Of a stretch of 64,000 nt of DNA, positions 36,050-47,742 are shown one piece after another. The position numbers were made by a program, and so were the translations under genes. This DNA is from Escherichia coli (GTDB lineage: Bacteria; Pseudomonadota; Gammaproteobacteria; Enterobacterales; Enterobacteriaceae): the NCBI RefSeq assembly GCF_046105845.1, contig NZ_CP151004.1; one strand, written 5' to 3'. The notes under the pieces were generated by a model. The model was not told the DNA's origin, searched no databases, and saw only the letters and a program-made list of their open reading frames with translations. Numbering within the stretch: the stretch's first letter is position 1; the number at the start of each line of letters is the position of its first letter.

Positions 36050-36111
36050 TGGGTATTGCCGGATGCGTCGCATCCGGCAATCGGTGCCAAATGCCGGATG
36101 CGTCGCTGGTT
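36050..36111. repeat. REP/BIME elements downstream of mglC and preA
   Basis: gccggatgcgtcgcatccggcaa and a second partial copy atgccggatgcgtcgc. Confidence 0.75.
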
Positions 36112-42226: not shown

Positions 42227-43174
42227 ATGCGTGTGTTACTGGCTCCGATGGAGGGTGTACTCGACTCTCTGGTGCGTGAATTGCTGACCGAAGTTAACGA
42301 CTACGATCTGTGCATCACCGAGTTTGTCCGCGTGGTGGATCAACTGCTGCCGGTAAAAGTCTTTCATCGCATTTGCCCTGAACTACAAAACGCCAGCCGG
42401 ACACCATCCGGTACGCTGGTGCGCGTGCAGTTGTTAGGCCAGTTCCCACAATGGCTGGCAGAGAACGCCGCCCGTGCAGTTGAGTTAGGTTCCTGGGGCG
42501 TGGATCTCAATTGCGGCTGCCCGTCGAAAACGGTTAACGGTAGCGGCGGTGGGGCGACGTTACTCAAAGATCCTGAACTCATCTATCAGGGTGCAAAAGC
42601 GATGCGCGAAGCTGTACCGGCGCATTTGCCCGTCAGCGTAAAAGTGCGTCTGGGCTGGGACAGCGGTGAGAAGAAATTTGAAATCGCCGATGCGGTGCAA
42701 CAGGCTGGTGCTACAGAGCTGGTGGTGCATGGGCGGACGAAAGAGCAGGGTTACCGCGCGGAGCATATTGACTGGCAGGCGATTGGCGAGATTCGCCAGC
42801 GGCTGAATATTCCGGTGATTGCCAACGGTGAAATCTGGGACTGGCAGAGTGCGCAACAATGCATGACGATCAGCGGATGCGACGCAGTGATGATTGGTCG
42901 CGGGGCGCTCAATATTCCCAACCTGAGCCGGGTGGTAAAATATAACGAACCGCGAATGCCGTGGCCGGAGGTGGTTGCTTTGCTGCAAAAATATACTCGT
43001 CTGGAAAAGCAGGGCGATACCGGGTTATATCACGTAGCGCGGATTAAACAGTGGTTGAGTTATTTGCGTAAAGAATACGATGAAGCAACGGAATTATTTC
43101 AGCATGTTCGGGTGTTGAATAATTCCCATGATATTGCAAGGGCTATTCAGGCAATTGATATCGAGAAACTCTAA
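42227..43174 (+). CDS. dusC: tRNA-dihydrouridine synthase C
   Basis: 315 aa from ATG 42227 ([13 protein letters not shown]…), Dus TIM-barrel flavoenzyme; the track ORF from 42161 is 5'-extended. Confidence 0.9.
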
Positions 43175-43239
43175 GAAACCATAGTGATGTTTTTTGACAA
43201 TGTGTTAGCTCTTTATCAATAGGCCGCACGGTTGTTTGG

Positions 43240-43445
43240 TGGCGTCAAAATCGCCGAGGCGTTCCCTGAAGGCCGGGGCAGCCCACATGGATGTGGGCTG
43301 AGGGCGCGTTTTACAGGGATGTTACCTCGCGCCCGACCCGGTAGCCGTAAGGGATAAGCCGAGGGCACCGCGCAGCGGCGATTTTGTTCGCCAGAGCCCG
43401 GGGGTGCAGGGGGCGGCGGCGATTGGCCGCCCCCTGCGCGCTCCT
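43240..43445. repeat. GC-rich multi-hairpin intergenic element (unclassified)
   Basis: Outer 11-bp inverted repeat caaaatcgccg (43246-43256) / cggcgattttg (43377-43387). Internal perfect hairpins at 43279-43300, 43302-43335 and 43407-43438. Confidence 0.6.
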
Positions 43446-43546
43446 TGCGCCAGTGATTATATGAAGCAATGCACATGACAGGAGCGCAACAGGATGAGAG
43501 ACTGAAATATTCTCGTTATTTTCGGATCTGATGACATTAATTAATT

Positions 43547-43630
43547 TTAAAATATCATCTTAAATACGCCAGTCACCACCAGTAGCCCAATCAGGAAAAT
43601 AATCAATACAGCCCAGAGTATAATTTTCAT
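43547..43630 (-). CDS. yohP: 27-aa single-TM small membrane protein
   Basis: Below the 60-aa track threshold; manual reverse-strand translation from ATG 43630 gives MKIILWAVLIIFLIGLLVVTGVFKMIF*. Confidence 0.7.
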   Translation of the reverse strand: MKIILWAVLIIFLIGLLVVTGVFKMIF

Positions 43631-43853
43631 TGGCGTTCCTTTATTTGTGAGTGCTGAATAAGTATAGGAAAAAACGAAGCCCTTTGCCGCTATCCATAAA
43701 CTATTAAGATAAATCGGAAGATATCATTCACTTAGTGTATATTTTTCTGGATATGTCGTTTTATTGCCACTGATGTATTGCCACGCGAAACTAAAAAATA
43801 TATCGCAACACACGGTAATCTCCGCGCACCTTTTCTTACCTGATTATTCCCCC

Positions 43854-45290
43854 ATGAATCGTGATTCTTTTTATCCCGCCATCGCCTGTTTTCCGCTGTT
43901 ACTGATGCTGGCCGGGTGTGCGCCTATGCATGAAACCCGCCAGGCGTTAAGCCAGCACACGCCCGCTTCACAAGTTGACACCGCATTACCCACGGCGCTG
44001 AAAAATGGTTGGCCAGACAGCCAATGGTGGCTGGAGTATCACGATAATCAACTCACTTCCTTAATTAATAACGCACTACAGAACGCACCGGATATGCAGG
44101 TGGCTGAACAACGCATTCAACTGGCTGAAGCCCAGGCGAAGGCAGTTGCCACTCAGGATGGTCCGCAGCTCGACTTTTCTGCGGATATGGAGCGACAAAA
44201 AATGTCGGCAGAAGGCTTAATGGGGCCGTTTGCTCTGAACGATCCGGCCGCAGGTACGACCGGTCCGTGGTACACCAACGGTACTTTTGGCTTAACGGCG
44301 GGCTGGCATCTCGATATCTGGGGAAAGAATAGGGCGGAGGTAACTGCTCGCCTGGGAACGGTTAAAGCACGGGCGGCGGAACGCGAGCAAACCCGCCAAT
44401 TGCTGGCTGGCAGCGTAGCCCGCCTGTACTGGGAGTGGCAAACCCAGGCGGCGTTAAACACTGTCTTACAGCAAATCGAAAAAGAGCAGAACACCATTAT
44501 CGCCACCGATCGCCAGCTATATCAGAACGGGATTACTTCTTCAGTTGAAGGTGTGGAAACCGATATTAATGCCAGCAAAACCCGGCAGCAGCTCGACGAT
44601 GTCGCGGGGAAAATGAAAATTATTGAGGCACGGTTAAGCGCACTTACAAATCACCAGACAAAGGCATTGAAGCTTAATCCGGTCGCGTTGCCGAAAGTGG
44701 CAAGCCAGCTTCCTGATGAACTGGGGTACTCCTTACTGGCGCGGCGGGCAGATTTGCAGGCGGCGCACTGGTACGTTGAGTCATCGTTAAGCACTATTGA
44801 TGCGGCAAAAGCGGCATTTTATCCTGACATCAACCTGATGGCCTTCCTGCAACAGGATGCGTTGCACTTAAGCGATCTGTTCCGTCATTCCGCGCAGCAA
44901 ATGGGCGTTACGGCAGGCCTGACGCTACCCATTTTCGATAGTGGTCGTCTTAACGCCAACCTCGATATCGCAAAAGCCGAAAGCAACTTGTCTATCGCCA
45001 GCTACAACAAAGCGGTGGTTGAAGCGGTGAATGACGTGGCGCAGGCAGCCAGTCAGGTTCAGACACTGGCGGAGAAAAACCAGCATCAGGCGCAAATTGA
45101 GCGCGATGCCTTGCGTGTAGTAGGTCTTGCGCAGGCGCGCTTTAACGCGGGCATCATTGCGGGTTCCCGCGTCAGCGAAGCCAGAATCCCCGCGCTGCGT
45201 GAGCGGGCCAATGGCCTGTTATTGCAAGGGCAGTGGCTGGATGCCTCCATTCAACTCACTGGTGCGTTGGGCGGGGGTTACAAACGTTGA
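43854..45290 (+). CDS. mdtQ: Outer-membrane-factor (TolC-like) efflux lipoprotein
   Basis: 478 aa from ATG 43854 (MNRDSFYPAIACFPLLLMLAGC, lipobox LAGC); the track ORF starts at 43764. The reading frame is uninterrupted in this window. Confidence 0.85.
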   Translation: MNRDSFYPAIACFPLLLMLAGCAPMHETRQALSQHTPASQVDTALPTALKNGWPDSQWWLEYHDNQLTSLINNALQNAPDMQVAEQRIQLAEAQAKAVATQDGPQLDFSADMERQKMSAEGLMGPFALNDPAAGTTGPWYTNGTFGLTAGWHLDIWGKNRAEVTARLGTVKARAAEREQTRQLLAGSVARLYWEWQTQAALNTVLQQIEKEQNTIIATDRQLYQNGITSSVEGVETDINASKTRQQLDDVAGKMKIIEARLSALTNHQTKALKLNPVALPKVASQLPDELGYSLLARRADLQAAHWYVESSLSTIDAAKAAFYPDINLMAFLQQDALHLSDLFRHSAQQMGVTAGLTLPIFDSGRLNANLDIAKAESNLSIASYNKAVVEAVNDVAQAASQVQTLAEKNQHQAQIERDALRVVGLAQARFNAGIIAGSRVSEARIPALRERANGLLLQGQWLDASIQLTGALGGGYKR

Positions 45291-45342
45291 TGATATGCGC
45301 CTTCTATACTTAACGTTTATTCAGCGTTAAGTGGAGAACTCG

Positions 45343-46104
45343 ATGGCACAGGTCGCGATTATTACCGCCTCCGATTCGGGGATCGGCAAAGAGTGCGCGT
45401 TATTACTGGCGCAGCAGGGGTTTGATATTGGTATTACCTGGCACTCTGATGAAGAAGGGGCAAAAGATACCGCGCGTGAGGTGGTTAGCCACGGCGTACG
45501 TGCGGAGATCGTGCAGCTGGATCTCGGCAATCTACCAGAAGGGGCACTGGCGCTGGAGAAACTCATTCAACGGCTGGGGCGTATTGATGTGCTGGTGAAT
45601 AATGCGGGCGCAATGACCAAAGCGCCGTTTCTTGATATGGCTTTCGATGAGTGGCGCAAGATTTTTACCGTTGATGTCGATGGTGCATTTTTATGCTCGC
45701 AAATTGCTGCCCGCCAGATGGTGAAACAAGGGCAGGGTGGTCGCATCATCAACATTACGTCGGTGCATGAACATACGCCGTTGCCGGATGCCAGCGCCTA
45801 CACAGCCGCTAAACATGCGCTCGGCGGGTTAACCAAAGCGATGGCGCTGGAGCTGGTCAGGCATAAGATTTTGGTGAATGCGGTTGCACCTGGGGCGATC
45901 GCCACGCCAATGAACGGCATGGATGATGGCGACGTGAAGCCCGGCGCGGAGCCTTCGATTCCCTTGCGGCGTTTTGGCGCAACGCATGAGATTGCCAGCC
46001 TGGTGATGTGGCTTTGTTCGGAGGGCGCAAATTACACCACTGGGCAGTCGTTGATAGTGGATGGCGGCTTTATGTTGGCGAATCCGCAGTTCAACCCAGA
46101 ATAG
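45343..46104 (+). CDS. yohF: Short-chain dehydrogenase/reductase
   Basis: 253 aa from ATG 45343 (MAQVAIITASDSGIGK…), SDR Rossmann motif. Confidence 0.88.
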   Translation: MAQVAIITASDSGIGKECALLLAQQGFDIGITWHSDEEGAKDTAREVVSHGVRAEIVQLDLGNLPEGALALEKLIQRLGRIDVLVNNAGAMTKAPFLDMAFDEWRKIFTVDVDGAFLCSQIAARQMVKQGQGGRIINITSVHEHTPLPDASAYTAAKHALGGLTKAMALELVRHKILVNAVAPGAIATPMNGMDDGDVKPGAEPSIPLRRFGATHEIASLVMWLCSEGANYTTGQSLIVDGGFMLANPQFNPE

Positions 46105-47569: not shown

Positions 47570-47742
47570 AAAGTTCTTTTGTGTTGCATTGCTGGCGTAA
47601 ATGTCAGCAATGCAGCATTTCCTCACGATTCTCCTTTGACGATCGCACTTTTTGCTCGTTATGATGGCGTCGCTAGCCTCAGTAAATCCTTACTCCGGCG
47701 GTGCGCAACCCGTGCGCGTGAACCACTATCTGAATGCTCATC

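Follow-up and report, generated by a model that had tools for sequence, protein, structure and literature searches.

The open frame at positions 43854-45290 (+ strand) of the 64-kb stretch of Escherichia coli DNA analysed here (the window) is very probably an ordinary, ancestral and intact allele of mdtQ, formerly yohG. Its product is a NodT-type lipoprotein with a putative exit-duct role, and the copy in K-12 differs from it in frame by the deletion of a single base. That mdtQ is intact outside K-12 is correct but ordinary. It is already known: a 2025 review places mdtQ in the conserved E. coli core genome despite the pseudogene annotation (PMC11762307), and a point on its intactness is also made elsewhere (PMC12719787). 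The present analysis adds the precise lesion, the finding that among 5,426 complete genomes it is confined to one haplotype, the lack of recurrent slippage at the site, and dN/dS values for the gene.

The mdtQ reading frame and its family

Both the open reading frame list and the raw sequence give an uninterrupted mdtQ frame from ATG 43854 to the TGA at 45288-45290, comprising 1437 nt and encoding 478 aa. The chance of an open frame of 478 codons is roughly (61/64)^478, or about 1e-10, and because the match to the MdtQ family also has E = 0, the frame lies far beyond chance. The protein begins with MNRDSFYPAIACFPLLLMLAGC, followed by APMHE. This N-terminus contains a hydrophobic core and then a lipobox, so that residues 1-22 (43854-43919, +) have the form of a lipoprotein signal peptide. 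Read directly from the sequence and without a signal-peptide predictor, the lipobox is L19-A20-G21-C22 (43908-43919), with the Cys22 codon at 43917-43919 and Ala at +2. It is conserved in 15 cluster members, E. albertii included. The preliminary description had called mdtQ an intact 478-aa frame with an LAGC lipobox, and the open frame, the lipobox and the full-length match to the MdtQ model bear this out.

Taken mechanically, the frame extends upstream to TTG 43764, giving 508 aa, and this longer version occurs in some older database records and cluster members. ATG 43854 is nevertheless the most likely start of mdtQ, since the 478-position family model aligns over residues 1-478, the current PGAP annotation of the nearest genomes uses this ATG, and a 30-residue extension would presumably bury the signal peptide. 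The in-frame segment at 43764-43853 (+) is most likely 5' untranslated rather than coding.

The exact window protein is already held by NCBI as WP_409023900.1 (E. coli MdtQ). The window is 100% identical to the independent assembly GCA_044249515.1 over 7,437 bp, and mdtQ is identical in the Logan read assembly of run ERR13115083. An assembly error can thus be dismissed as the source of the intact frame.

Family membership was assigned from profile models and solved structures. The protein scored 1017.7 bits against the NCBIfam MdtQ equivalog NF008524 (cut-off 650 bits), with residues 1-478 aligned to profile positions 1-478 of 478. It also passed the NodT lipoprotein subfamily model TIGR01845 (274.7 bits against a cut-off of 210.05), and Pfam PF02321 (OEP) matched it in two stretches with 107.5 bits (cut-off 22), corresponding to two tandem OEP repeats. 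The neighbouring families were separated by their own thresholds: the MdtP model NF007390 gave 352 bits over residues 17-477, below its cut-off of 597, so MdtQ is not a member; the TolC type I secretion model TIGR01844 gave 52.2 bits, far under its cut-off of 225.15; and the CusC-type and AdeK/AdeC models also scored it under their cut-offs. Homologues of solved structure aligned over nearly the whole mature protein, namely VceC (1YC9, E 8.8e-40), OprM (4e-23), SilC, CusC, CmeC, MtrE and OprN. These profile and structural matches place MdtQ in the NodT lipoprotein branch of the TolC-like family of outer-membrane factors. The earlier identification of the gene as mdtQ, encoding a TolC-like lipoprotein, agrees with the NF008524 score, with the two OEP repeats and with the gene order dusC-yohP-mdtQ-yohF-yohD.

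E. coli MdtQ/YohG as recorded in other strains (WP_001078159.1 in VCSW5; UniProt Q8X659 in O157:H7) is the same gene, with 478 aa, the same lipobox and the same dusC-yohP-mdtQ-yohF order. The closest complete genomes at mdtQ, such as VCSW5, share 99.2% DNA identity with the window. The window protein differs from the VCSW5 allele at two residues, H35 for Q and L106 for I; both are N-terminal and the L/I change is conservative. The window allele itself is rare and was seen on only a few contigs. The mdtQ locus alone reached 99.2% in only five complete genomes, and over 24 kb of the window (32000-56000) none of the 5,426 complete genomes was at least 99% identical, the best lying at 98.0-98.5%. 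The window lineage is thus poorly represented among complete genomes.

The K-12 lesion and its distribution

In MG1655 (NC_000913.3), mdtQ (b2139) is annotated as a pseudogene at 2227323-2228758. This interval of 1436 bp is one base short of the window gene, and the annotation agrees with the preliminary description, which gave mdtQ as a disrupted pseudogene in this reference. The K-12 pseudogene is the orthologous locus in a collinear context, with 97.6% DNA identity to the window over the gene. In a pairwise alignment, the two alleles are separated by 34 substitutions and by one indel only. The indel falls in a homopolymer at 44001-44005 (+), within the Lys50-Asn51 codons AAA AAT, where pairwise and multiple alignments and run-length probes place five A residues (A5) in the window and four (A4) in K-12. 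The preliminary description had allowed for a difference from the reference at the disabling site, and such a difference was found: MG1655 has A4 and not A5.

As a consequence of this deletion, the K-12 frame shifts after Lys50 and stops 19 codons later, predicting a 69-aa product of 50 native and 19 aberrant residues. The sequence beyond the lesion is still readable in the +2 frame, with 8 amino acid differences from the window. A K-12 product made by restart would presumably begin at residue 81, where the next in-frame Met lies, and be without the signal peptide.

The distribution of the lesion was examined in 5,426 complete E. coli genomes with run-length-specific probes of 48-50 nt. Each flank of a probe was too short to seed megablast alone, and only genomes with the same run length were therefore reported. 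The frameshifting A4 run was found in 355 genomes, all 100% identical to the K-12-flank probe. The A5 run was found in 5,017 genomes, a count that covers only the site at 44001-44005 and does not imply full-length intactness of every one of these copies. The reading frame is kept at the A-run in about 93% of complete genomes. A longer window probe of 86 bp matched exactly in 4,473 of 5,411 genomes, and the equivalent K-12 probe matched exactly in 355. The preliminary description had also allowed that the source strain might carry a functional allele. The alignments and genome counts favour this in the sense that the window carries the common intact allele, expression aside.

Among the A4 matches listed (60 by rank and 60 by spread), the carriers were K-12 laboratory derivatives or had the K-12 haplotype. 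They included MG1655, W3110-type strains, BW25113, DH1, DH5alpha, C600, J53, JM109, MC4100, NCM3722 and S17-1. A single carrier seemed to be an exception: EcN_Sk (NZ_CP172017.1, 1762033-1765680; 5.06 Mb, human stool) is named as a Nissle-type strain yet holds the K-12 mdtQ including its frameshift. We considered whether A4 had arisen there independently, in a Nissle-type background, and rejected this, as its mdtQ equals K-12 at 1436 of 1436 positions; a genuine B2 mdtQ allele differs from K-12 at 37 sites. The match points to a segment derived from K-12, or to a strain that is a hybrid or has been engineered.

The polarity of the change was given by 99COLEC (NZ_CP070902.1), a human faecal isolate whose mdtQ lies 2 substitutions from K-12. 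Because this close allele keeps A5, the K-12 deletion is derived. The 99COLEC gene is itself disrupted by an independent 73-bp deletion at gene positions 173-245, and truncated copies of mdtQ occur in some isolates of Salmonella Typhi and Paratyphi A (PMC9241588). Such natural inactivations argue that mdtQ is dispensable in some settings. Judged from these alleles, the K-12 lesion arose once, as a derived change specific to that lineage, and intact mdtQ is the ancestral state and the species norm, from which sporadic independent losses occur. K-12 is an unusual reference for mdtQ, and its pseudogene label should not be carried over to the gene in other E. coli.

Gene neighbourhood, selection and alternative readings

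The whole window is collinear with K-12 from 2272837 down to 2208656 at 96.9-98.4% identity, and the neighbours dusC, yohP, yohF, yohD, yohC and pbpG map full length from K-12. VCSW5 and GCA_044249515.1 have the same gene order at mdtQ. Upstream, dusC (yohI; 42227-43174, +), mapped from K-12, fixes the synteny. It is followed by yohP (43547-43630, -), which is divergent from mdtQ and encodes a small membrane protein of 27 aa that is 100% identical to K-12, as supported by K-12 gene mapping, related genomes and the literature (PMC12719787). Downstream, yohF (45343-46104, +), encoding an SDR oxidoreductase, begins 52 bp after mdtQ and is full length with 3 amino acid differences from K-12. No adaptor or pump gene lies beside mdtQ in the window; the gene stands alone, just as in K-12.

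A promoter and terminator scan of 43150-45450 returned nothing above shuffled expectation. The only promoter-like site upstream of mdtQ in that scan, at 43531-43558, was no better than shuffled sequence, and no terminator-like site was found between mdtQ and yohF. The sequence before ATG 43854 contains no obvious Shine-Dalgarno motif, and the mdtQ promoter is unconfirmed according to the 2025 review (PMC11762307). Given the shared strand, the 52-bp gap and the terminator scan, mdtQ and yohF are possibly co-transcribed. The gap between dusC and yohP holds TRIP1c, a GC-rich repeat placed at 43218-43490 (no strand assigned) by coordinate transfer from K-12 2229122-2229394 (PMC10888264). This structured non-coding element is separated from dusC by 43 bp and from the mdtQ start by 363 bp, and it contains a spurious 86-aa minus-strand open reading frame. 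Chromosomal inversions mediated by TRIP1c together with TRIP1a have been reported for some strains (PMC10888264).

Several other features of the window were recorded. In the yehQ orthologue (63556-61712, - strand), codon 560 is a premature stop, whereas it encodes Trp in K-12. K-12 yehQ in turn stops at codon 615, which reads Glu in the window, and there the frame runs on. The two copies share 94.0% DNA identity with 31 amino acid differences, and from the positions of their stops the window strain and K-12 carry different yehQ nonsense changes. All other K-12 genes lying wholly inside the window, from pdeN to yehR, are full length without an internal stop. Across the window, Rfam gave a single match at the gathering threshold, to the Peptidase-S11 RNA motif (RF03039, 72.8 bits) at 47658-47738 (+); it lies upstream of the DD-endopeptidase gene pbpG, in its leader. 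Between preA and mglC (window 36052-36069), K-12 is longer by roughly 170 bp (K-12 2236543-2236732 unaligned), the extra sequence probably being a small intergenic repeat that the window lacks.

Selection on mdtQ was estimated pairwise by the Nei-Gojobori method. The window and the frame-restored K-12 allele differ by 26 synonymous and 8 non-synonymous changes, giving a dN/dS of 0.09. The window and VCSW5 differ by 10 synonymous and 2 non-synonymous changes (dN/dS 0.06), and K-12 and VCSW5 by 26 and 6 (dN/dS 0.07). The E. albertii MdtQ orthologue has 479 aa, is 93.7% identical and retains the same lipobox. These ratios indicate strong purifying selection on the mdtQ alleles compared across E. 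coli. No excess of replacement changes was found in the K-12 allele in the pairwise dN/dS comparisons, which is consistent with a recent frameshift.

The values also bear on whether intact mdtQ is a silent relic that is unexpressed, or without a role, and has had too little time to decay. Such a relic would fit the missing convincing promoter and ribosome-binding site, the pump and adaptor genes that are not adjacent, the fact that K-12 thrives without MdtQ, the sporadic natural knock-outs and a function described as not elucidated (PMC11762307). We nevertheless consider this improbable. The low dN/dS over a dS of about 0.03-0.08 shows that amino acid changes are being removed, the frame is kept at the tested site in the large majority of genomes, and the E. 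albertii gene is full length and closely similar. The gene also belongs to the core genome of the E. coli phylogroups examined (PMC11762307).

It is very unlikely that the A-run acts as a slippage-prone contingency switch, turning MdtQ on and off in nature, with K-12 caught in the off phase. Phase-variable genes do usually encode surface proteins and carry a mononucleotide run close to their 5' end, and the K-12 lesion alters such a run by one base, yet a run of five is short for phase variation, and every one of the 355 A4 genomes matches the K-12-flank probe exactly, including the sole carrier examined that is not named as K-12 (EcN_Sk), which equals K-12 at every base of mdtQ. The opposite slippage product was also sought. 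An A6 probe matched 35 genomes at 96% identity with unchanged length, and we rejected these as +1 slippage alleles: they are alleles of the strain-536 type, where a synonymous CTG>CTA substitution at Leu49 makes an in-frame A6. A frameshifting A6 occurred in 0 of 5,426 genomes. Contingency genes are recognized by recurrent, independent tract-length changes in unrelated lineages; here, among the matches listed, A4 was confined to the K-12 haplotype.

We give almost no credence to a sequencing or assembly error in the window or in the K-12 reference, for although a homopolymer run is the classic place for indel errors, 355 separately assembled genomes descended from K-12 all reproduce A4 exactly and 5,017 others reproduce A5, and the window allele is reproduced by both GCA_044249515.1 and the Logan assembly.

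Proposed role of MdtQ and comparison with known outer-membrane factors

By analogy with the NodT-type proteins OprM, CusC and VceC, the precursor would be lipidated on Cys22, and with Ala at +2 the Lol pathway would be expected to sort it to the outer membrane. There, MdtQ may form a trimer with a 12-stranded beta-barrel and a long periplasmic alpha-helical tunnel. This trimer would serve as the exit duct of an inner-membrane pump, docking onto it by way of a periplasmic adaptor, with both partners encoded at other loci. A structural model of MdtQ has been published (PMC11762307).

It is conceivable, though less likely than not, that intact MdtQ is a working, alternative and TolC-independent outer-membrane exit duct in wild E. 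coli, overlooked because almost all work on efflux genetics used K-12, where a one-base deletion has removed it; this idea has already been raised in the 2025 TolC review (PMC11762307). Purifying selection, near-universal conservation and a single-origin loss are compatible with such a duct. If this were true, an export route independent of TolC, together with its partner pump, should come to light once A5 is restored in K-12 or mdtQ is deleted from wild strains. A phenotype of yohG knock-out reportedly originates with Sulavik et al. 2001. It is repeated at second hand in passages of two later papers (PMC11762307, PMC9241588). If measured in K-12, such a phenotype would be odd for a gene that is already frameshifted. 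Conclusions about efflux-pump outer-membrane channels that were drawn in K-12 say nothing about MdtQ, and the A5 to A4 change at Lys50-Asn51 provides a precise lesion that is repairable by a single-base edit to probe the role of the protein.

Among E. coli proteins, the closest paralogue of MdtQ is MdtP (YjcP), the outer-membrane subunit of MdtNOP and likewise a NodT-type lipoprotein outer-membrane factor. The two differ in genetic setting, as mdtP lies in an operon with its adaptor and pump whereas mdtQ stands alone (PMC11762307). TolC is not a lipoprotein and shares only about 12% identity with MdtQ (PMC11762307). VceC from Vibrio cholerae (1YC9), OprM (1WP1), CusC (3PIK) and TolC (1EK9) each have a known pump partner and known substrates, unlike MdtQ.
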